51,316 nt of DNA from assembly GCA_964629675.1 (NCBI GenBank), contig CAZVUG010000011.1:1-51316 (forward strand), in the 5' to 3' direction. The notes beneath the pieces were generated by a model. The model searched no databases, had not been told where the DNA came from, and saw only the letters and a list, made by a program, of their open reading frames with translations. Of this stretch, positions 1 to 50,960 are shown one piece after another (positions within the stretch are counted from its first letter, which is position 1; each line of letters opens with the position of its first letter). Source of the DNA: an uncultured Candidatus Saccharibacteria bacterium. GTDB lineage: Bacteria > Patescibacteriota > Minisyncoccia > Portnoybacterales > UBA2143. The position numbers and the translations under genes were made by a program.

Positions 1-168
1 GAGGGCAGCTGGGGTATAAGAAGTGATTTTCTCGACGCTGGCAACCTCTTTTGGTCGGCTACTACCAAATCCGGTGGTACCCACTACGCTTGGTTCGTCT
101 ACTTGCACTACGGCTACACGACCTACCCTGATAAGACTCGTGAGTATGACTCCCGTTGTGTCCGGTAG
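1..168 (+). CDS. 3' end of DGR1 target protein (C-type-lectin-like / DUF1566-type variable C-terminus), truncated by the window edge
   Basis: Frame +1 is open from base 1 to TAG at 166-168: EGSWGIRSDFLDAGNLFWSATTKSGGTHYAWFVYLHYGYTTYPDKTREYDSRCVR*. It has the FWS..T....AW.V....G......K.....RCVR pattern of CLec-fold DGR targets and contains VR1. It is absent from the ORF track because it has no start in the window. Confidence 0.92.
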   Translation, partial: EGSWGIRSDFLDAGNLFWSATTKSGGTHYAWFVYLHYGYTTYPDKTREYDSRCVR

Positions 169-182
169 TTCTGGCCATAATT
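35..182 (+). repeat. DGR1 variable region (VR1) with IMH-like 3' end
   Basis: Ungapped alignment to 774-921 (offset 739) gives 21 mismatches, 19 of them at TR adenines. Confidence 0.95.
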
Positions 183-236
183 TGATAATTCGATGATTTA
201 ATTATTCAATTATTTTCTTCATTTCTTCATTTTTTC
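181..236 (+). repeat. Degenerate 8-nt periodic T-rich repeat downstream of VR1
   Basis: tttgataa|ttcgatga|tttaatta|ttcaatta|ttttcttc|atttcttc|attttttc. Confidence 0.6.
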
Positions 237-239
237 ATT

Positions 240-602
240 ATGTCTCGTTATTTCCACATTCCAATTTTTCAGCAAGGATATGATTTGAATTTGCAAATCT
301 ACCGAACAACGCATAATTTTCCCCGGGAGTATAAATATACTTTGGGACAAGAATTGAAAAAAGTATCAAGCGAGCTTTTGGACTATATTGTCAAAGCCAA
401 CCAGAAAAGGGATAAAGATCTCTGTTTTGCCGAAATAAGAAGCCGGATTGAACGTTTGCGAATCTATTTTAGAACAGCCTATGATTTGAAAATAATCAGA
501 ATTGAAAAATTTACCTATTTCAGCCGAACTTTAGAAATGATTGCCAAACAAAATGCTGGCTGGGAAAATTGGTTCTTTGATAAAAAAAGGGAAGTTCAAT
601 GA
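240..602 (+). CDS. avd: DGR accessory variability determinant (Avd-like four-helix-bundle protein)
   Basis: 120 aa basic helical protein with IFQQGYDL...NFPREYKYTLGQEL...LRIYFR...GW motifs; lies between VR1 and TR1. Confidence 0.9.
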   Translation: MSRYFHIPIFQQGYDLNLQIYRTTHNFPREYKYTLGQELKKVSSELLDYIVKANQKRDKDLCFAEIRSRIERLRIYFRTAYDLKIIRIEKFTYFSRTLEMIAKQNAGWENWFFDKKREVQ

Positions 603-603
603 A

Positions 604-773
604 GCCAGAATTCTTATTCAGCTCTAATGAAAGTTAAAGCGAATAAGGAGCGAGCAAAAAAATTATGGCGATTCCGTTTTCCATTAATAAAATCAATGGA
701 ATAAAGTATTGATCAGCCATACCTTGCTTTGGCAAGGATTGGCTGAGTTAAGAAGAAATAGCGGAAATATCTC
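604..773 (+). ncRNA. Structured 5' leader of DGR1 template RNA
   Basis: Hairpins at 613-647, 679-701 and 713-746; helix 672-678/760-766; motifs GCCAGA, GAGCAAA, GCGATTCC and GCGGAAATAT shared with the DGR2 leader. Confidence 0.65.
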
Positions 774-921
774 ACGCTGGCAACAACTTTTGGTCGGCGA
801 CTACCAAATCCAATGATACCCACAACGCTTGGAACGTCAACTTGAACAACGGCAACACGAACAACAATGCTAAGACTAATGAGTATGACTCCCGTTGTGT
901 CCGGTAGTTCTGGACATAATT
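774..921 (+). repeat. DGR1 template region (TR1)
   Basis: AAC/AAT-rich copy of VR1 with 13 AAY codons in the VR frame; non-coding position between avd and RT. Confidence 0.95.
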
Positions 922-2104
922 AATCTTTGTTCTTTGGCTTCCTTGGATTTCTCTTTAATTGAAAATAATTAAAGTTTTCATCAGCTGGCTGAAGATAAGC
1001 TTTCAAAACTTGAAAATGTTTTTGGTAAAGGGATTTTCTTAATTTAAAAGTGTTAGCATGCTTAAATTGGCCGTAATAAGAATTAATAACCGAAAGAATT
1101 TCAGTAAGCTGCTTATTAAAAATTTTGGCATTTTTCGGCAGGGGATTTTGATTAAACTGCCACAATTTTCTCTTGAAATTACCGACTATTCGCCGGCGAA
1201 TTAAAGAATAATGAGGCTTGATTATGAAGCCGACAAAATTAATTCCTTGATTGACGGAGCGGAGAATTGTTTTATCGGGATGAAGTTTTAAAGCAAGTTT
1301 TTCTCTAAGAAAATTATCAATTTGCTTGGACCAATCTTTTAATTGCTGCTGATTTTGGCTGAGGATTAAAAGATCATCAACATACCGTAAATAATATTTA
1401 ATTTTCAATTGGTGTTTTACAAATTGGTCTAGCTCGTTTAAATAAACATTAGCAAAGAATTGGGAAGTTAAATTACCAATCGGCAAACCTTGATTTTGCG
1501 GAACTTTGAAAAGAGATTTATGGCTAGGAATTAGCTGAAAGAGCTTTAGGTCTCCCTTGGCGTAAAAATCCTTAGTCGGATCTTGAAAAATAATTTTCTG
1601 GGCTAGCTGGAGAATTTCCTGATTATGAAGATGTTTTTTAATTAATGCAAAAAGGATGTCTTTCTTCAGAGACATAAAGAAAGCGGAGACATCAGCTTGG
1701 AGATAATAAGCCGGCTGGGAAAAATTAAGGCTGATTTTTCTAAGAAATTTCCTTAAATCTTTAATCGCATAATGAGCTCCTTTGCCTTTGCGGCAGGAAT
1801 AAGAATGGTGGATAAATTTTCTTTCCCAAGTTGGCTCTAAATATCTGACTAGAAGATGATGGATGATCCTGTCTCTGAAATCAGCGGCAAAAACTTCGCG
1901 AGGCTTTGGCTGGGTAACGACAAAACAGATTGATTGGCCGGGATAATAAGCTTGTTGCTGCAATTCTGATTCCAGTTTCAGCAGTCCTTTTTCAAAAGAC
2001 AATTCAAATTTAGCTGCCTTAACAGTTTTTCTCTTTCTTCGCCGGCATTGGTAGTAGGCGATTAAGAGATTCTGGAAAGAAAATAATTTAGATTGGCTAG
2101 CCAT
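920..2104 (-). CDS. DGR reverse transcriptase (RT1), antisense to TR1
   Basis: KPREVFAADFRDRIIHH, SYSCRKGKG, GLPIGNLTSQFFANVYL, YLRYVDD, INFVG; 394 aa with no endonuclease domain; adjacent to a TR/VR pair. Confidence 0.95.
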   Translation of the reverse strand: MASQSKLFSFQNLLIAYYQCRRRKRKTVKAAKFELSFEKGLLKLESELQQQAYYPGQSICFVVTQPKPREVFAADFRDRIIHHLLVRYLEPTWERKFIHHSYSCRKGKGAHYAIKDLRKFLRKISLNFSQPAYYLQADVSAFFMSLKKDILFALIKKHLHNQEILQLAQKIIFQDPTKDFYAKGDLKLFQLIPSHKSLFKVPQNQGLPIGNLTSQFFANVYLNELDQFVKHQLKIKYYLRYVDDLLILSQNQQQLKDWSKQIDNFLREKLALKLHPDKTILRSVNQGINFVGFIIKPHYSLIRRRIVGNFKRKLWQFNQNPLPKNAKIFNKQLTEILSVINSYYGQFKHANTFKLRKSLYQKHFQVLKAYLQPADENFNYFQLKRNPRKPKNKD

Positions 2105-2253
2105 TCATTATATTTTAAAACATGTTTAAAATTAATTTATCAGCCAAGGATTATAAAGAAATTACGATGATTTATATAATCACTCATAATGAGTTTAAAA
2201 AAAATTATTATTTAGCAAAGGTCGGTTAAAAATAATGTAAGTTGTTAATAATT

Positions 2254-2919
2254 ATGATTAAAAAAGAAATATTAAAAAAGAATGAAAAATTAATTAAAAT
2301 TCTGCTGATTATTGCTATCCCGATAGCCATTGCCAGCATCGGCTATTTTTTAGTTAAAGCGCAATCAGTTTCTGATGATTTTACGACTGATGACAATATC
2401 GCTGATACTTGGCAGACAACGGTAGCGACTAGCACAGGAGAGGTTACTTTAGAATTAAGAGATTGCGATGTCGGAGAGGGAATTTGGTTTTGTAATGCTT
2501 CAACTACCTGCGCTAATTATTTGGGCGATGGCGATTATATCTTAGTAGCGCAAGATGACCTGGGGACGACCAAGCAGTGGAAAACCGCTAAGACAGCCTG
2601 CGATCAGCCTGAATGCGGAATCAAAGGAGGTAACAATGGAGATAATTTAGTGGCTGATAACACAGTTGATTTCAGCACTAATGGCTATAATGCGCGGGAT
2701 GCCTGTAAGGCGATTGGCGGTAGATTGCCGACTAAAGATGAACTTGATTGTATTTATGACCATAAAGCTGATTTTGGAAATAATTTTGCTGCCAGCCTCT
2801 ACTGGTCAAGCACGGATTTCTCGGCGGAGCACGCCTGGGTACAGAGCTTCACGACTGGTACTCAGGGCATCTACAATAAGACTCGCAGCACCTACGTTCG
2901 TTGCGTTAGGGGCTGGTAG
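2254..2919 (+). CDS. DGR2 target protein: N-terminal TM/signal, Cys-rich linker, DUF1566/Lcl-like CLec domain with VR2
   Basis: Hydrophobic LLIIAIPIAIASIGYFLVKA; ARDACKAIGGRLPTKDEL; YWSST...AWVQSF..G...K....VRCVRG. ATG at 2254 is preferred over the TTG at 2242. Confidence 0.92.
   Translation: MIKKEILKKNEKLIKILLIIAIPIAIASIGYFLVKAQSVSDDFTTDDNIADTWQTTVATSTGEVTLELRDCDVGEGIWFCNASTTCANYLGDGDYILVAQDDLGTTKQWKTAKTACDQPECGIKGGNNGDNLVADNTVDFSTNGYNARDACKAIGGRLPTKDELDCIYDHKADFGNNFAASLYWSSTDFSAEHAWVQSFTTGTQGIYNKTRSTYVRCVRGW
2783..2913 (+). repeat. DGR2 variable region (VR2)
   Basis: Ungapped alignment to 3134-3264 (offset 351) gives 18 mismatches, 17 at TR adenines. Confidence 0.95.
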
Positions 2920-2920
2920 G

Positions 2921-2967
2921 TTTGAAATTTGTTAATTTGACATCTTGAGTCTTTAAAATTTTAAAAT
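2921..2967 (+). repeat. Degenerate 8-nt periodic T-rich repeat downstream of VR2
   Basis: tttgaaa|tttgttaa|tttgacat|cttgagtc|tttaaaat|tttaaaat. Confidence 0.55.
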
Positions 2968-2972
2968 TTTTA

Positions 2973-3133
2973 TCTATGGCCAGATCTTTCGGATGTGAAT
3001 TTCATTAGCACCGAAAGGAGAGCAAAGCATACCTACCGCGATTCCTGCTGCCTCGGTAAGAAGCGGGGCATTGTAGGTCAAAAGGTCTTTCATGATATCG
3101 TCAGACCTTTGGAGAAAATTTGAGTGCGGGAAT
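2973..3133 (+). ncRNA. Structured 5' leader of DGR2 template RNA
   Basis: Hairpins at 2986-3017, 3049-3070 and 3081-3110; helix 3041-3048/3126-3133; closing stem 2973-2980/3285-3292. Confidence 0.65.
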
Positions 3134-3264
3134 ATTTTGCTGCCAGCAACTACTGGTCAAGCACGGAGAACTCGGCGGAGAACGCCTGGAAACAGAACTT
3201 CACGACTGGTAATCAGAACAACAACAATAAGACTAACAGCAACTACGTTCGTTGCGTTAGGGGA
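3134..3264 (+). repeat. DGR2 template region (TR2)
   Basis: AAC-rich copy of VR2 with 11 AAY codons in the VR frame. Confidence 0.95.
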
Positions 3265-3301
3265 GATGGGTAGGCTTAGCTAATGCCATAGACCATTAAT
3301 T

Positions 3302-3682
3302 ATGCAAATAAGTAATACTAAAATTTACTATAAGCTGTATTTGCTGACAAAACATTTTTACTTGATAGTTAAAAATTTTCCCAAGGAATATAAATATGAA
3401 TTAGGCAGAGATATAATCAGGTTATCGTGGCGTTGTCTTGACTTATCGCTTGAAGCCAACTCAGCCCGAAATCAAGATAAAAGAATAAAAATAACAGAGT
3501 TAAATAAAGTTTATGAAAAATTAAAAATGAGAGTTAGAATGAGCCAAGAAATTAATTTAATTACAATCAATCAATTTGCGCATATTGAAGAATTTTATTT
3601 GCTTGAAATTGGTCGCATGATTGGAGGATGGAAAAAGTGGTCGGAAGATAAAATAGAAAAAAGGCAAGCAGTTGCCAATTAA
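3302..3682 (+). CDS. avd: DGR accessory variability determinant (Avd-like four-helix bundle)
   Basis: IYYKLYLL...NFPKEYKYELGRDI...LKMRVR...EIGRMIGGWKK; immediately upstream of RT2. Confidence 0.92.
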   Translation: MQISNTKIYYKLYLLTKHFYLIVKNFPKEYKYELGRDIIRLSWRCLDLSLEANSARNQDKRIKITELNKVYEKLKMRVRMSQEINLITINQFAHIEEFYLLEIGRMIGGWKKWSEDKIEKRQAVAN

Positions 3683-3696
3683 TAAATTATGGATTT

Positions 3697-4869
3697 ATGG
3701 ATATTTTGACATACAGTAACTTGTACCGCGCTTACTTGGATTGCCGAAAAACAAAACGCAAAACCGCTAACGCTTTAAAATTTGAAATTGATTTAGAACG
3801 TAATTTAGAAATATTATTATCAGAGCTTAAAAGCAAAAAATATCAGCCAGGCCGTTCAATCTGTTTTGTGGCCACCAACCCTGTTCCCAGGGAAATATTC
3901 GCGGCTGAATTTAGAGACAGGATTGTTCATCATTTATTAATTAGAGAAATATTACCCATTGGAGAGCGTAATTTCATTTTTGATTCTTACGCTTGCCGCA
4001 AAAACAAAGGAACGCACCAGGCGATTAATCGGCTAAAAAAATTTATTAGACAAACTACGGGCAACGGAAACAAAAATGTTTTTTATGCCCAATTGGACGT
4101 CAAGGGATTTTTTATGGCTATTGACCAGCGAATTTTATATAATTTAACAAAAAAGTTAGTCAAGAAACAAAAAAGACCGCAACATTGGAAGCAAGATGTT
4201 TTATGGCTGACAAAAAATATTATCTTTCATAATCCAGCGGAAAATTATATAACCAAAGGGGATCCTGCTTTATTCAATCTAATCCCAACGCATAAATCAT
4301 TGCGTTGCCAGCCCAAAGGCAAAGGACTGCCAATCGGTAATTATACTTCTCAGTTTTTCGCCAACTTATATCTAAATGAATTAGACCAATTTATAAAAAG
4401 AAAACTTAAGAGTAAATATTATATTCGTTATGTTGATGACATTATTTTACTAGATGCTGATAAAGAAAAATTAAAATATTTAAGGAATAGAATTAATAAT
4501 TTTTTAATGAAAAACCTAAGATTAGAATTAAATGTAAATAAAGTTCGCTTTCAACTTTTAGTTAAGGGAATAGATTTTTTAGGGTATTTTGTTAAACCTG
4601 ATTATGTATTAGTTAGACAGAAAGTAATTAAGCGGCTGAAGAATAATTTATTTAAGATGAGTTTTGCTAATTTTAAATTTTTAAATAAACAAATGTTTTT
4701 AAAAAGAAACTTAGCGATGATTAATTCTTATTATGGCCATTTTAACCATGCGCAAAGTTTTAATTTAAGAAAAAATATCTATAATAGCCATTTAGCAGAA
4801 CTAAGAAATATTTTTTTGCCCAAGAAAGGATTTAGTTGCTTAAAAATAAATAATAAATATGTTGCCTGA
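3697..4869 (+). CDS. DGR reverse transcriptase (RT2)
   Basis: PREIFAAEFRDRIVHH, DSYACRKNKGTH, GLPIGNYTSQFFANLYL, YIRYVDD, IDFLGY. Confidence 0.95.
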   Translation: MDILTYSNLYRAYLDCRKTKRKTANALKFEIDLERNLEILLSELKSKKYQPGRSICFVATNPVPREIFAAEFRDRIVHHLLIREILPIGERNFIFDSYACRKNKGTHQAINRLKKFIRQTTGNGNKNVFYAQLDVKGFFMAIDQRILYNLTKKLVKKQKRPQHWKQDVLWLTKNIIFHNPAENYITKGDPALFNLIPTHKSLRCQPKGKGLPIGNYTSQFFANLYLNELDQFIKRKLKSKYYIRYVDDIILLDADKEKLKYLRNRINNFLMKNLRLELNVNKVRFQLLVKGIDFLGYFVKPDYVLVRQKVIKRLKNNLFKMSFANFKFLNKQMFLKRNLAMINSYYGHFNHAQSFNLRKNIYNSHLAELRNIFLPKKGFSCLKINNKYVA

Positions 4870-7483
4870 AAATAAAAATAAAATAAATCAGCGCTTTTTA
4901 AATATCCCTACTAATATATTTATGGGCCTGTTTGTAGTTTATTTGTTATTTTTTGCCGGCGTGATTGTTGTAAAAGCTGATGATTATCATAAACAAGGCG
5001 CTTTGCTATCAACAAATCTGTTAAGCGGGCTGGAAGATGTGGCTATTATCCAATCTTTTGAATGTACTGCGGATGTGCCTGCCTCGACTACTTTAAGTGT
5101 GACTTTTTCGCAAGACGGGACTCATTGGGTTAATCAATACGGTTATAAGGGTTTTTATGATGATTGTTCAGACGGCTCTACGACAATTGATCTAACTGCC
5201 TTGGAATGGACTGACGCTAATTTTTACTACAAACTTAAACTTGAAACTGCCAGCACAACTTTGACGCCCACAGTTAGCGGCATTCAAGTTAATTACTCTG
5301 ATAGTTATACGCCGCCAGCTTCTGGGCAGGACGGTTATTATAAACAAGGAACAGTGCTTTCGACTGATTTATTAGAAGGGATAGATTTAAATTTCAACGG
5401 TACGGAAAAATTTGGCTATCAAATTGATTCATTGCCGGCTGGGACGACAGTTCAAGTGCAATTCAGCCAGGATAGCGTTAATTGGTATAGTTCAACTAGC
5501 ACTCTCTGGGCTTGGGATACTTTGTCAGCAGGCGATCATTCTAATGCTGCCAGCGCAGTTGATTTATCAGAACTAAATTGGATTAGAAACAGTTTTTATT
5601 ATAAATTAAAATTTACTACTTCTGATAGTAGCCAAACGCCGGTTGTTAGCGAGATAAAATTATTAAGAAGCAGCACCTCTATTGATGATGATTCACCTGA
5701 TTTTTCAGAAGGGGTTGATGATCCCACAGGCAGCGCGCCTACTCCCTTTATTTCAACAATCATGGAAAACCCTGAATTAGGCCAATTCAGCAAGCTTTTT
5801 GACTGGGAAGCAGAGGTAGAATGCGACCTGACAGCCACGACCACCAGGGTTTTTTCCGGTTCCTTTACCGGAGCAGTCAATCACGGCGACACTGTCACTT
5901 GTGTCAGTGGAGGCATACACAATGGAATTACTGCTCGCGTTGTCTCAACAAGCACCAGCCAGCTTTTGCTGGATAATGCCACTTCTTCAGAAGCGGTTAT
6001 TCTCTCGGCTGGCGATAAATGGCAGGTAGATGGCGATAACTACTTTGCTCTTGCCGGCTCGGCCAACGAATTAGGCGATACTGCATATGCGGTGGCGAAA
6101 ATAGATGGAACCTGGTCTGCTGCCGACACCACGGCTGTGACCATTGACGGCTGGGAAACAGACGCCGATAACTATATCAAAATTTACACCACCAAGACAG
6201 CGAGGCATAATGGCAAGTGGGATGAGGGGAAGTATAGGATTGAGACTTTAGTTGACACTATTGTAAACCAAGAAGATTATGTGCGAGTTGAAGGTCTACA
6301 AATATATACAGAAGATAAAGGTTATATAAATTATGGAGATGGCGAGTTGCACTTAAGCTATTGTATAATTAAATCAGATGGTGGTGATGGTAGTTATGGT
6401 GTATATTATTTCGGAGATCACACTTCTACATTTAAGATGTGGAATAACATAATTTATGATTTTAATGGGACAAGTAGTTATTGCGTCTGTAGAATTGAAG
6501 GCTATTCTTATTGGTACAATAATACTGTTTATAACTGTACTGTTGGTTTTTCGGGTTATACAGGGGACGGAATATTAGTAGCGAAAAACAATATAACTCA
6601 AAGCTGCACGACTGGGTATGACAATTCAAGCTATTATGATACCCACTCCCATAACATCTCATCAGACGCTACATCGCCAGATGCGGCGTATCAGAACAAG
6701 AATGTTTCTTTTGCCGATGAGGATGGCGATGACTTTCACTTGGCGGGGAATGATGCGGCGGCGCGCAATGCCGGGGTGGATTTGTCTGCTGATGCTAATT
6801 TGGCTTTTTCTGATGATATTGATGGGGAAGAAAGAGGTTATCGGGGCTGGGATATTGGCGCGGACGAGACCTTTAAGTCCCTGATGATTAACACTCCCCA
6901 GAGAAAACGCCTCACAGACGGCTTAGTCGGCTACTGGACCTTTGACGGTCCGGATATGGACTGGTCATCTACCACGGCTGAAGTATTGGACCAAAGCGGA
7001 CAAGGCAATGACGGCGATGTGACCAATATGTCACAACAGTCTGTCGCCTCTGGTATCTCCGGCCAAGCGTTGGACTTTGACGGCGTGGATGATTATGTGG
7101 ATGCGGGGAATCTTGGCAGCGGAATTAAAACAATAGCTTTCTGGCTTAAGGCAGACGACATAACTAGCCGTAAGATTATTAATATAGACGGAACAGATCA
7201 AATTGAGATTGATGGCAGTAGTGATATTCAAGCAACCAGTTTTCCAAACGCAACTATTTATGTAGACGGAGCAGTTGCATCAACCATAACCGATGATTGG
7301 CACTTTGTTACTATCACAGATAGCACTGGAGTTAACGCTTCAACGATGAACATTGGGCGTGTTTCAACATCATATTTCGATGGCCTTATTGACGAAGTGC
7401 GGATATATGACCGAGCGTTGAGCGTGGATGAGGTTGGGGAGTTATATCGATCTGGATCAAGAAGATATAAGATTAAGCAATAA
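4859..7483 (+). CDS. Large secreted/surface protein: two tandem N-terminal repeat domains, beta-helix-like middle, C-terminal LamG/concanavalin-like domain
   Basis: Signal-like GLFVVYLLFFAGVIVVKA; duplicated KQG..LST.LL.G...FSQD...W...FYYKLK...TP.VS.I; WNNIIY/YNNTVY and WDIGADE; GLVGYWTFD...ALDFDGVDDYV...FDGLIDEVRIYDRALS. The start could be the ATG at 4922. Confidence 0.8.
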   Translation: MLPENKNKINQRFLNIPTNIFMGLFVVYLLFFAGVIVVKADDYHKQGALLSTNLLSGLEDVAIIQSFECTADVPASTTLSVTFSQDGTHWVNQYGYKGFYDDCSDGSTTIDLTALEWTDANFYYKLKLETASTTLTPTVSGIQVNYSDSYTPPASGQDGYYKQGTVLSTDLLEGIDLNFNGTEKFGYQIDSLPAGTTVQVQFSQDSVNWYSSTSTLWAWDTLSAGDHSNAASAVDLSELNWIRNSFYYKLKFTTSDSSQTPVVSEIKLLRSSTSIDDDSPDFSEGVDDPTGSAPTPFISTIMENPELGQFSKLFDWEAEVECDLTATTTRVFSGSFTGAVNHGDTVTCVSGGIHNGITARVVSTSTSQLLLDNATSSEAVILSAGDKWQVDGDNYFALAGSANELGDTAYAVAKIDGTWSAADTTAVTIDGWETDADNYIKIYTTKTARHNGKWDEGKYRIETLVDTIVNQEDYVRVEGLQIYTEDKGYINYGDGELHLSYCIIKSDGGDGSYGVYYFGDHTSTFKMWNNIIYDFNGTSSYCVCRIEGYSYWYNNTVYNCTVGFSGYTGDGILVAKNNITQSCTTGYDNSSYYDTHSHNISSDATSPDAAYQNKNVSFADEDGDDFHLAGNDAAARNAGVDLSADANLAFSDDIDGEERGYRGWDIGADETFKSLMINTPQRKRLTDGLVGYWTFDGPDMDWSSTTAEVLDQSGQGNDGDVTNMSQQSVASGISGQALDFDGVDDYVDAGNLGSGIKTIAFWLKADDITSRKIINIDGTDQIEIDGSSDIQATSFPNATIYVDGAVASTITDDWHFVTITDSTGVNASTMNIGRVSTSYFDGLIDEVRIYDRALSVDEVGELYRSGSRRYKIKQ

Positions 7484-30001: not shown

Positions 30002-31336
30002 ATGTCTTCTCTAGAAGAAATTAAGAAAAATAGAATAGAGAAATTAAAAAGAATTCAAGAATCAGGAATTGATCCTTATCCAGCAGAAACTCATTACACT
30101 CACCAATGCCAGGAAATAATTGATCATTTTACTAAATTAAGCTCAGGCAAAAAAGAAATTATTTTAGCTGGCCGAATAATTTCTATCAGGGAGCACGGCG
30201 GCTCAACTTTTGCCAATATTCAAGACGGCAGTGCCAGCTTGCAAATTTATTTAAAAAAAGACGAACTAGGGGAAAAGGAATATAAGTTTTTCCAAGCAAA
30301 TTTTGATATTGGCGATTTTATTGAAGCCAGCGGCAGTTTATTCTTAACTGGCCGGGGAGAAAAAACTCTCTTGGTTAAAAAATACCGGCTTTTAAGCAAA
30401 AGCTTAGCTCCTTTGCCAGAAAAATGGCATGGCTTAAAAGAAGTGGAAGAAAGATTTAGAAAAAGGTATTTAGATCTTTTGATGAATAAGGAAGTCAAGG
30501 AGAATTTTATTAAACGGACTGAGATTATCAAAAGCTTGAGGAAATTTTTGGATGAGAGAGGTTTTGTTGAAGTGGAAACCCCTATCCTGCAGACAATTCC
30601 TGGAGGCGCCTCAGCTCGTCCTTTTGTAACTCATCATCATGCTTTGGATATTGATCTTTATTTACGAATTGCCCCGGAGCTTTACTTAAAAAGATTACTT
30701 GTTGGCGGCTTAGAAAAAGTTTATGAAATTGGCCGCTGCTTTAGAAACGAAGGCTTAGACAGCACTCATAATCCTGACTTTACTACTCTAGAATTTTATG
30801 AAGCTTACAGCGATTATGAGAAATTTATGGAAATGACCGAAGAAATGGTCGTCTATGTCTTAAAATCATGCGGCTGCCAAGATATTCCTTGCCAAAGGCC
30901 TTTTAAAAGAGTTGAATTTTCCGCATTAGGCCGGAATGACGATGAATTAAAAGCAAAAATCAAGGAAATAACTGAACCGACTTTTATTATCCATCATCCG
31001 ACAGAGATATCTCCTTTAGCTAAATCTTTAGTAAAAGAGCCAACTAAAACAGCCCGCTTTCAATTAGTTATTAACGGTTTAGAATTAGCTAATGCTTTTT
31101 CTGAATTGAATGATCCTTTGGAGCAAAAAAAACGTTTCCAAAAACAGGAAGAGAATCTGCGAAAGGGCGATCAAGAAGCGCAGAGATACGATCAGGATTT
31201 TATTGAGGCCTTGGAATACGGTATGCCGCCGGCTGCCGGCTTAGGTTTAGGTATTGATAGATTTGTTGCCCTATTGACCAAAGCAAAAAGCTTGAGGGAA
31301 GTAATTTTATTCCCTTTGATGAAACCAAAGGAATGA
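30002..31336 (+). CDS. lysS: Lysine--tRNA ligase (class II, compact)
   Basis: LPEKWHGL, RYLDL, LRIAPELYLKRL, FRNEG, EYGMPPAAGLGLGIDR. Confidence 0.97.
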   Translation: MSSLEEIKKNRIEKLKRIQESGIDPYPAETHYTHQCQEIIDHFTKLSSGKKEIILAGRIISIREHGGSTFANIQDGSASLQIYLKKDELGEKEYKFFQANFDIGDFIEASGSLFLTGRGEKTLLVKKYRLLSKSLAPLPEKWHGLKEVEERFRKRYLDLLMNKEVKENFIKRTEIIKSLRKFLDERGFVEVETPILQTIPGGASARPFVTHHHALDIDLYLRIAPELYLKRLLVGGLEKVYEIGRCFRNEGLDSTHNPDFTTLEFYEAYSDYEKFMEMTEEMVVYVLKSCGCQDIPCQRPFKRVEFSALGRNDDELKAKIKEITEPTFIIHHPTEISPLAKSLVKEPTKTARFQLVINGLELANAFSELNDPLEQKKRFQKQEENLRKGDQEAQRYDQDFIEALEYGMPPAAGLGLGIDRFVALLTKAKSLREVILFPLMKPKE

Positions 31337-49631: not shown

Positions 49632-50960
49632 ATGAAAATACATTTTATTGGAATTGGAGGCATAGGCGTAAGCGCTTTAGCGCAATATTATTTGGAAAAA
49701 GGGGACACAGTTAGTGGTTCTGACTTGGTTTTGTCTGAAGTGACTGAATTTTTAAAGGGAAAAGGAGTTAGAATTATGATTGGCCAGCATCAAGCTAAAA
49801 ATTTACCGAGTGACGTAAGTTTAGTTATTTATAGTCCAGCGGTTAAAAGAGATAATCCTGAACTTTTCAAAGCGCGCGAGTTGCAGACTGCGAGTTATAA
49901 ATTAGAGATTAAAAGTTATCCAGAAGCTTTGGGCGAACTTACAAAAAAATACTTTACAATTGCAGTATCAGGCACTCATGGAAAAAGCACTACCAGCTCA
50001 ATGGCGACTTTAATTTTAATAAAAGCAGGGTTTGACCCTACGGTTGTTGTTGGAACTAAATTAAAAGAATTAGGCGGAACTAATTTTAGAATGGGTAAAA
50101 GCAAGTATCTCGTTATTGAGGCTGATGAATGGAACGCATCTTTTCTGAATTATTGGCCCAAAGTCATTGTTTTAACATCCATTGAAGAAGAACACCTTGA
50201 TTATTATAAAAACTTAAAACATATTTTAAAAACCTATCAAGAATATATTCGTCGTTTGCCCGAAGATGGAGTTTTAATTGCCAATCGAGACGATAAAAAT
50301 ATATTAAAATTAAAAGGACAAAACTCAAAATTAAGATTTAAAGCGCGCAATTACAGCTTAACGCAAAAAGACGCTAAAAAAATTGGACAAATTTTAAAGG
50401 TTCCCGGCAAACACAATGTCTTGAATGCTTTAGCCGCGTTAAATATTGCTAGAATTTTAAGAATTTCCGACCAGATAATTTTTAAAGCTTTGTCAGAATA
50501 CACTGGAATTTGGCGCAGATTTGAAGTGAAGAAAGCGCAAACTAACCATAAGGATTTTACTCTTATTAGCGATTACGCTCATCATCCTACTGAAATAGAA
50601 GCAACCTTAAGGGCTACAAAAACGAAATTTAAGAATAAAAGAATTTGGTGTGTTTTTCAGCCGCACCAGTTTCAAAGAACTTATTATCTATTCAATAACT
50701 TTGTTAGGGTGTTTAAAAGAAACCCGATTGAAAAATTAATTATAACCGATATATACGATGTGGCTGGTAGAGAAAAAAAGACAACTAAAAAACAGATTAG
50801 TTCCGAAAAATTGATTAAAAAAATTAATAAACCCCAAGCTATTTATTTGCCCAAGATAGAAATAACAAATTATTTGAAAGAAAACTTAGAGGGGGATGAA
50901 GTAGTTATTATTATGGGAGCAGGGGATATTTATAAAATAGCAAAAGATTTTTCTGTTTAA
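49632..50960 (+). CDS. murC: UDP-N-acetylmuramate--L-alanine ligase (copy 2)
   Basis: IHFIGIGGIGVS, SGTHGKSTT, EADE, RRFE, DYAHHPTEI, FQPH, MGAGDI. Confidence 0.95.
   Translation: MKIHFIGIGGIGVSALAQYYLEKGDTVSGSDLVLSEVTEFLKGKGVRIMIGQHQAKNLPSDVSLVIYSPAVKRDNPELFKARELQTASYKLEIKSYPEALGELTKKYFTIAVSGTHGKSTTSSMATLILIKAGFDPTVVVGTKLKELGGTNFRMGKSKYLVIEADEWNASFLNYWPKVIVLTSIEEEHLDYYKNLKHILKTYQEYIRRLPEDGVLIANRDDKNILKLKGQNSKLRFKARNYSLTQKDAKKIGQILKVPGKHNVLNALAALNIARILRISDQIIFKALSEYTGIWRRFEVKKAQTNHKDFTLISDYAHHPTEIEATLRATKTKFKNKRIWCVFQPHQFQRTYYLFNNFVRVFKRNPIEKLIITDIYDVAGREKKTTKKQISSEKLIKKINKPQAIYLPKIEITNYLKENLEGDEVVIIMGAGDIYKIAKDFSV

Follow-up and report, generated by a model that had tools for sequence, protein, structure and literature searches.

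The two diversity-generating retroelements (DGRs) at the start of a 51,316-nucleotide contig from an uncultured Candidatus Saccharibacteria bacterium (assembly GCA_964629675.1, contig CAZVUG010000011.1; the whole contig is called the window here) both carry a conserved, covarying structured RNA that adjoins the template repeat (TR). This RNA, named the leader, lies directly upstream of the TR in each element (DGR1 and DGR2). It is probably the structured, protein-recruiting part of the DGR template RNA, in a transcript that closes on itself. The evidence is comparative, and it comes from the sequences of related loci and from the pairing between the leader and the sequence at the end of the TR and behind it.

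Motifs and local fold of the leaders

The sequence of both leaders was read directly. GCCAGA is located at 604-609 in DGR1 and at 2979-2984 in DGR2, and it is the most conserved motif, being invariant or nearly so in the alignments. Hairpin A is built from the strands CTTATTC(A)GCT (613-623) and AGCGAATAAG (638-647) in DGR1, and from CTTTCGG (2986-2992) and CCGAAAG (3011-3017) in DGR2. Then come GAGCAAA (652-658 in DGR1, 3020-3026 in DGR2) and GCGATTCC (668-675 and 3038-3045, respectively). Helix B pairs TTCCGTT (672-678) with AGCGGAA (760-766) in DGR1 and ATTCCTGC (3041-3048) with GCGGGAAT (3126-3133) in DGR2. It encloses two hairpins, C and D, separated by a conserved single-stranded stretch whose consensus is AUUGAUAGUCA in the covariance model R2 described below. 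Hence, the motifs, hairpin A, helix B and the enclosed hairpins are all found in both leaders where the initial annotation had placed them. The elements are the following, all on the plus strand:

611-649: hairpin A of DGR1, seen in the sequence, the single-sequence fold, the covariance model R3 and the paired-cell count
650-671: linker of DGR1, between hairpin A and helix B, engaged in a long-range duplex
672-766: helix B domain of DGR1, enclosing hairpin C (679-701), a single-stranded stretch (702-712) and hairpin D (713-746)
2986-3017: hairpin A of DGR2, seen in the fold, RNAalifold, the R3 model and the paired-cell count
3018-3040: linker of DGR2, with an RNAduplex energy of -21.0 kcal/mol with the TR2 3' end and tail
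3041-3133: helix B domain of DGR2, enclosing hairpin C (3049-3070), the conserved single-stranded stretch (3071-3080) and hairpin D (3081-3110)

Comparative evidence for the local fold

To compare the leaders, 80 loci encoding relatives of RT2, the reverse transcriptase (RT) of DGR2, were collected. Adenine-biased pairs of TR and variable repeat (VR) were found by script in 67 sources, the window being one of them. RNAalifold, applied to DGR2 and four loci (L003, L004, L007 and L008), gave hairpin A and helix B with its two hairpins, and 20 of the 33 pairs in these five sequences show compensatory changes. Covariance models were built separately for the 3' domain (R1 and R2) and the 5' domain (R3), and R1 found 15 leaders adjoining TRs. 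An alignment of 14 sequences, which omits L006 because an open reading frame (ORF) interrupts its RNA, has 96.9% of its 321 cells paired, versus 66.4 ± 1.8 in shuffles. Double changes are present in 23 of the 25 pairs, and none of 500 shuffles reached either the pairing or the double-change value. Each column shows 3-5 pair types across the 14 sequences, and when the partners were slid by 1-3 columns the paired fraction was 35-47%. These results bear out the initial annotation, which had noted that pairing is kept while the stem sequences differ.

Hairpin A was counted separately. In nine true rows, 89 of 94 cells are paired, versus 27/66 to 50/92 in shifted versions; this count required a structure-aware alignment and the removal of four off-target rows. 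Plain MAFFT alignments of diverse leaders were misaligned and one of them was excluded from the counts; with 14 diverse 5' domains, plain MAFFT gave an alignment from which RNAalifold drew no consensus. Among the paired cells, G.U combinations outnumber A.C ones (26 versus 4), and therefore the helices belong to the RNA strand with the sense of the TR.

Regarding recovery by the models, R2 was rebuilt from the 14 sequences, DGR1 not being among them. With filters off, over positions 1-5000 of the window, it gave 86.9 bits for DGR2 and 28.5 bits (E 1.1e-4) for DGR1 at 664-769, the next-best match reaching 12.3 bits; at default filters, both R1 and R2 missed DGR1. R3 was built from L003, L004, L007 and L008 alone, and the window sequence was kept out of its seed because one alignment split the DGR2 hairpin. 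Its two best matches in the window are 602-670 (20.3 bits) and 2977-3040 (19.1 bits), with exact positions and with E-values that are marginal over 1.2 Mb (0.25 and 0.46, respectively). In L083, which carries the closest relative of the DGR1 reverse transcriptase (RT1), the contig end leaves just the last ~50 nt of the leader. Two further window matches, 30400-30505 with R1 and 49781-49810 with R3, were rejected as noise, with E near 1 and no DGR context.

Folding of single sequences gave a mixed picture. The DGR1 leader is strong against shuffles (z -5.1); the first inner hairpin does not look the same in its minimum-energy fold as in the comparative model. Two points weigh against the proposed fold. 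Taken by itself, the DGR2 leader does not outdo its shuffles in folding (z -1.1), and since this fold is unremarkable the case for structure rests on comparison. In addition, pairs were counted on alignments that had been fitted to the model, which inflates pairing; the signal is nevertheless judged real because of the independent RNAalifold result and the slid controls.

The DGR2 z value would also suit an explanation in which the similarity of the leaders reflects shared ancestry or chance between neighbouring elements without a selected structure, or an inverted repeat acting at the DNA level. The equal scores of the long-range duplexes on the antisense strand (see below) point the same way. 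This explanation is highly improbable, as it is already contradicted by RNAalifold, the covariation counts, the recovery by R2 and the G.U to A.C count. It would have to accommodate double changes in nearly every pair and several pair types per column among loci whose RTs share 43-89% identity, the drop in pairing in the slid controls, and the recovery of both leaders by independent models. Moreover, none of 66 reverse complements satisfied a strict descriptor of the 5' domain, which is defined with the breadth of the family.

Genetic context of the two elements

The two DGRs, both complete, occupy positions 1-5000 of the window as follows:

35-182, plus strand: VR1, in the 3' end of a target gene interrupted by the contig start (Pfam Lcl_C), with 86% identity to TR1
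240-602, plus strand: avd1 (Pfam bAvd, 55.6 bits)
604-773, plus strand: DGR1 leader, between avd1 and TR1
774-921, plus strand: TR1, from the TR/VR comparison
920-2104, minus strand: RT1 (Pfam RVT_1, 68.6 bits), convergent with TR1
2242-2919, plus strand: DGR2 target gene (Pfam Lcl_C), containing VR2 (2783-2912)
2979-3133, plus strand: DGR2 leader, between the target gene and TR2
3134-3263, plus strand: TR2, from the TR/VR comparison
3302-3682, plus strand: avd2 (Pfam bAvd, 61 bits)
3697-4869, plus strand: RT2 (Pfam RVT_1, 72.3 bits)

The features of a DGR system are thus present twice in the window, namely an adenine-biased TR/VR pair, an RVT_1 protein, a bAvd protein and a target with a C-type-lectin-like domain (Lcl_C). 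TR/VR mismatches fall at TR adenines in 19 of 21 cases in DGR1 and 16 of 17 in DGR2, and there is one VR per TR in the whole assembly of 494,614 bases.

VR1 and TR1 (window 48-130 and 787-913) are sites of contig breaks in both metagenome runs that contain the window, and short high-depth contigs deviate from the window at variable, adenine-templated positions. These breaks and variants fit heterogeneity of VR1 in the population, or additional VR copies. Over the leader, the metagenome contigs offer just one near-identical piece (run X4, 591-741, 1 difference).

Long-range pairing between the leader and the 3' tail

The linker, with its GAGCAAA motif and a terminal GCG, shows complementarity to the final bases of the TR and the next 20-30 bases. 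In DGR1, AAUUAUG (661-667) pairs with CAUAAUU (915-921) at the TR1 3' end and GAGCAAA (652-658) with 926-932; this duplex has -15.4 kcal/mol and ranks 4/15 among partners. In DGR2 the partner of the linker is the TR2 3' end with the proximal tail (roughly 3260-3281), 3021-3037 being paired with about 3262-3281, and two registers are possible near CCUACC (3032-3037) and GGUAGG (3269-3274); its energy, given above, ranks 1/15. A second long-range helix, P0, pairs the bases before and within GCCAGA with the more distal part of the tail. Its strands and the tails, on the plus strand, are:

590-607: 5' strand of DGR1 P0, overlapping the last avd1 codons and GCCA of GCCAGA; partner 935-952
922-952: 3' tail of DGR1, including the P0 3' strand (935-952) and antisense to the 3' end of RT1
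2973-2980: 5' strand of DGR2 P0, overlapping GCCAGA (2979-2984); partner 3285-3292
3264-3292: 3' tail of DGR2, including the P0 3' strand (3285-3292)

P0 of DGR1 comprises 17 bp, with an RNAduplex energy of -21.4 kcal/mol versus a non-cognate mean of -8.5 (rank 1/15), and P0 of DGR2 has -12.5 kcal/mol (rank 3/15); both are also present in the cofold. Because of these two long-range pairings, the DGR RNAs are taken to span about 590-952 and 2973-3292. The GCCAGA and GAGCAAA motifs were therefore placed correctly in the initial annotation, but they are engaged in helices with the TR 3' end and the tail instead of being free single strands.

Cognate and non-cognate partners were compared in 13 representative loci with 100,000 permutations. 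The mean for the linker duplex was -17.4 versus -12.0 ± 0.93 when permuted, and for P0 it was -13.0 versus -8.5 ± 0.74; in neither case did any of the permutations reach the observed value. The same complementarity had a by-product, since R3 matched the reverse complement of the L004 tail (L004:1916-1973, minus strand, 17.8 bits).

Several observations speak against these pairings. The linker:tail duplex is weak in L008 (-6.4, rank 13/15) and unremarkable in L003 (rank 7/15), and the DGR2 linker pairs fairly well with the DGR1 tail (-17.6). P0 lies within the background in six of 15 single loci (L031, L037, L021, L018, L003 and L022, ranks 6-11 of 15). The long-range duplexes score -15.2 in sense and -14.6 in antisense, the sense strand being better in 13 of 26, so that the two strands are not told apart. 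Finally, a hairpin internal to TR1 (894-920) competes with the proximal duplex of DGR1, and the cofold chose the hairpin; both use the same bases, so they are mutually exclusive.

This hairpin (GUGUCCGG...CUGGACAU) is terminator-like, and the stop codon of the target lies within it at the TR1 3' end; VR1 carries the same hairpin with one mismatch. In other loci (L004, L007, L008, L021, L023 and L027) there is an extra tail stem-loop between the linker-binding stretch and P0, where the phage RNA discussed below has its Avd-binding stem-loop; DGR1 and DGR2 have no such extra stem-loop.

Concerning the start of the transcripts, the promoter scan gave 24 matches versus 17.6 ± 4 in shuffles, which is no enrichment. 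Just before the predicted RNA 5' end at 2973 there are TTGACA (2937-2942) and TAAAAT (2962-2967), 19 nt apart and so off consensus; TTGACA has no properly spaced -10 box, and the promoter scan did not report the pair.

Position of the RNA relative to the template repeat

In 21 of 24 loci, the 3' end of the R2 match falls between -4 and +10 nt from the point where the TR-VR homology starts (median 0.5); the outliers are L016 and two loci with GIY-YIG ORFs, L006 and L062. At the other edge, the tail partner of the linker starts between 22 nt before and 3 nt after the end of this homology, and the linker duplex stops 0-4 nt before helix B. From these positions relative to the TR edges, it follows that the two duplexes bracket exactly the stretch copied into the VR.

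The GIY-YIG ORFs are small and lie inside the DGR RNA (L006:626-916 and L062:5258-5596; Pfam 56.7 and 55.1 bits, respectively). The first separates the 5' domain (558-630) from the 3' domain (893-1003), and the second lies between the 3' strand of helix B, which ends at 5267, and the TR, which starts at 5606. In L008, hairpin C is long and extended, and its stem resembles one flanking the L006 insertion.

In the window, both leaders are 5' of the TR and the distance from the TR to the next gene is 0-30 nt. Among the loci, the leader adjoins the TR in three gene orders: after the target gene (DGR2, L003, L004, L007 and L008), after avd with a convergent RT (DGR1, L009, L021, L022 and L057), and after avd and before the RT (L018, L069 and L080). 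Since the leader always abuts the TR whatever the neighbouring genes are, leader and TR behave as one module. This agrees with the portable module suggested in the initial annotation, except that the functional unit is larger than leader plus TR, as the long-range helices add the ~30 nt tail behind the TR.

Another conceivable role of the leader is limited to the stability, processing or regulation of the TR transcript, or to control of avd and RT translation, and has no direct part in reverse transcription. An arrangement of this kind is suggested by L023 (3993-4050), where the TR abuts the RT gene and the RT start codon, together with the first ~45 nt, lies within the tail paired with the linker, so that RNA folding and RT translation may be coupled. 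On the other hand, in DGR1 no gene follows the TR on the same strand, the RT being convergent. The position of the leader is fixed relative to the TR and not to any gene, and the exact bracketing of the TR-VR homology by the duplexes would be needless for an element of an untranslated region. A purely regulatory role is thus unlikely.

Comparison with the BPP-1 RNA and proposed mechanism

To our knowledge, everything known about how DGRs carry out reverse transcription comes from a single phage element, which has its scaffold behind the template, and the DGR surveys and the Rfam model that we know of also look behind the template. This element is the DGR of the Bordetella phage BPP-1. According to Handa et al., its 140-nt spacer (Sp) behind the TR begins with an Avd-binding stem-loop; the primer strand Sp47-56 is paired to TR117-129, and A56 primes, with initiation at TR117 of 134 and 2 nt between the primer and stop strands (10.1101/2023.10.23.563531). 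In the same text, the 'cPRT Stop' consists of Sp59-70 paired to the last avd codons just before the TR, and the stop strand is followed by a short stem-loop, A-minor adenosines with a single-stranded 'Thumb Ring', and a long RT-binding stem-loop (10.1101/2023.10.23.563531).

The leaders resemble this RNA in being cis-acting structured RNAs on the TR transcript of a DGR with bAvd and RT. The order of the elements is common to both: a stem-loop, a strand pairing with the last ~5-20 nt of the TR, a gap of 0-4 nt, the strand of a duplex that abuts the TR 5' edge, a short stem-loop, a conserved single-stranded stretch and a long stem-loop, the last three being hairpin C, the stretch and hairpin D in the leaders. 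In particular, both have a strand complementary to the TR 3' end placed 0-4 nt from the strand of the TR-abutting duplex. The DGR1 RNA also overlaps the last avd codons, as in BPP-1. The differences concern the connections. The scaffold is 5' of the TR in DGR1 and DGR2, whereas in BPP-1 it is 3' of the TR, between TR and brt. In the leaders, hairpin D is followed by a short linker, the helix B 3' strand and then the TR, while the BPP-1 RNA ends there and has the partner strand before the TR. The scaffold strand that pairs beside the TR comes from upstream in the leaders and from the downstream spacer in BPP-1. The terminal helix P0 joining the RNA ends is an addition of the leaders, and helix B has 7-8 bp versus 11-12 in BPP-1.

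This topology suggests that the leaders belong to a circularly permuted DGR RNA in which P0 marks the new ends, a reading about as likely to be right as wrong, or somewhat better, and based on topology and not on detectable sequence homology. Some data do not favour it. The likeness to the BPP-1 RNA consists of element order alone, with no sequence similarity seen, and the base before the conserved GCG of the leaders is not a conserved A, unlike the priming A56. The Rfam family Phage_DGR (RF03022), which represents the BPP-1 spacer RNA and corresponds to the RT-10 motif in the accessible text of Weinberg et al. 2017 (PMC5737381), gave no match in window 1-6000 at E<=10, in 20 related loci at the gathering score or in seven loci at E<=1; the positive control, BPP-1 2750-2882 on the minus strand, scored 104.7 bits (gathering score 50 bits).

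On this basis, the following model can be proposed. The transcript would begin about 12 nt ahead of GCCAGA and extend about 30 nt beyond the TR. Its 5' flank would pair with the distal tail as P0, hairpin A would branch off, and the linker would pair with the last bases of the TR and the proximal tail. Helix B would begin 0-4 nt after the linker duplex and enclose hairpin C, the single-stranded stretch and hairpin D, and its 3' strand would end a few bases before the TR. By analogy with BPP-1, the duplex of the linker with the TR 3' end could be the template:primer duplex, with cDNA starting by cis-priming from a ribose 2'-OH, and helix B could act as the 'stop' duplex, terminating the cDNA at the TR 5' edge. 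Hairpin D and the single-stranded stretch may hold the RT, and hairpin A (or P0) may hold Avd. Binding of RT and Avd by the leader, which the initial annotation had already suggested, is the best explanation and is inferred by comparison with the BPP-1 ribonucleoprotein (RNP); the site of priming, the role of helix B as a stop and a common origin with the phage RNA are inferred as well.

The organisation also recalls retrons. In the retron msr/msd RNA the 5' and 3' ends pair, and here too one transcript would have the scaffold 5', the template 3' and paired ends, the P0 means and the loci within background being those given above. The template would likewise be copied from its 3' end towards the scaffold, and internal 2'-OH priming is the expected chemistry; in retrons it is described as taking place at a guanosine (PMC8867640). 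The differences are that the RT is of the DGR type and comes with Avd, that there is a TR/VR pair with adenine-specific mismatches, and that the template codes for a protein segment. Retron RNA families gave no match in the Rfam scan of window 1-6000.

Thus, the same scaffold might be primed as in retrons, with P0 as the a1/a2 duplex, the 2'-OH provided by the conserved AGA after P0 (within GCCAGA), and cDNA starting in the tail and reading into the TR. The pairing of the RNA ends agrees with this, as does the conservation of GCCAGA, which exceeds that of any other motif and, in an alignment, resembles the GGUCAGC context of the phage priming A56. However, the cDNA would then include a tail of 20-45 nt without counterpart at the VR, and the RT would first have to unwind the linker:tail duplex. 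The phage primer duplex, 2 nt from the stop duplex, fits the linker rather than P0, and the RTs are accompanied by bAvd and TR/VR pairs, which are not retron features. Retron-like priming therefore seems quite unlikely, and priming at the linker duplex is preferred.

If the model with priming at the linker duplex is right, it would explain how DGRs work without a spacer between the TR and the next gene, including many in the ultra-small genomes of the Candidate Phyla Radiation (CPR) and those with a convergent RT. Where the mutagenic cDNA starts and where it ends would be encoded in the two duplexes themselves, and both sites would be predictable from sequence. The template cassette would be a self-contained, relocatable RNA gene, with the RT on either strand or distant. 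Annotation of DGRs would improve, as the RNA model would show the orientation of a TR and its limits, and the system, which is small (a roughly 320-nt RNA and two small proteins), could provide a compact second chassis for DGR-based targeted mutagenesis tools.

Relation to described RNA motifs

The initial annotation had considered the leader possibly undescribed, and the leaders of the window and of the related loci are absent from Rfam 15. In the accessible text of Weinberg et al. 2017, motifs RT-1 to RT-19 are reported near RT genes, and it is guessed that RT motifs other than RT-10 serve other DGRs (PMC5737381); those included in Rfam 15 gave no match to the window or the related loci. The survey of Handa et al. 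proposes that the duplexes around the TR and the Avd stem-loop are conserved across phyla, CPR included, and it folded 40 nt upstream and 100 nt downstream of the TR (10.1101/2023.10.23.563531). Because of this 40-nt upstream limit, a 160-nt upstream scaffold would be invisible to it. No description of a scaffold upstream of the TR was found in the accessible full-text literature, supplements and subscription papers being outside this scope. It is not mentioned in the available portions of PMC5758913, PMC10907252, PMC8867640, PMC12875486, PMC8144416 and the 2026 preprints on non-coding RNA mining, and the words on RNA structure that were searched for in Wu et al. 2018 do not occur there.

Breadth of the family

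R2 gave position-correct matches in loci labelled Saccharibacteria, Falkowbacteria-like, Wolfebacteria and other CPR groups, and also in a Woesearchaeota metagenome-assembled genome (MAG; L005). A match was present in a Gammaproteobacteria bacterium (L071), and weak ones in a Rheinheimera-labelled MAG (L069, E 0.061) and in Thiorhodospira sibirica (L080, E 0.15). The restriction to one CPR clade supposed in the initial annotation does not hold, given the labels Woesearchaeota, Gammaproteobacteria and Thiorhodospira sibirica among the matches. With filters off and E<=2, R2 had no on-target match in nine of 11 distant loci (L023, L027, L060, L063, L041, L051, L028, L052 and also L064, where the one match was off-target). 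With stricter filters there was no match in 150 other sampled genomes of the phylum, a result that is uninformative on DGR-bearing genomes.

The strict descriptor of the 5' domain consists of a GCCAGA-like motif, a hairpin of 7 contiguous pairs and then RRG. It was satisfied by 22 of 66 segments upstream of TRs, versus 26 of 1852 segments taken at random from these loci and, as indicated above, no reverse complement. It reaches loci labelled Thermodesulfobacteriota, Cytophagia, Bacteroidales and Geobacter, which R2 does not. Combining R2 and the descriptor, about half of the TR-bearing loci carry part of the signature; the remaining ones are either too divergent for the models or truly different. 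Regarding these data, it is tentatively proposed, with slightly less than an even chance of being correct, that a large share of the DGRs in CPR, DPANN-labelled archaea and Proteobacteria use a circularly permuted RNA whose RNP would share the architecture of the Bordetella phage one, with a primer duplex, a stop duplex and grapples for RT and Avd, but wired to the 5' side of the template and closed by a terminal helix.

Moreover, two of the related loci carry known RNAs within about 1-4 kb of the DGR cassette: the Rfam DUF3800-V RNA in L008 (609-702, minus strand, 51.9 bits) and the LOOT RNA in L021 (593-689, plus strand, 51.2 bits).

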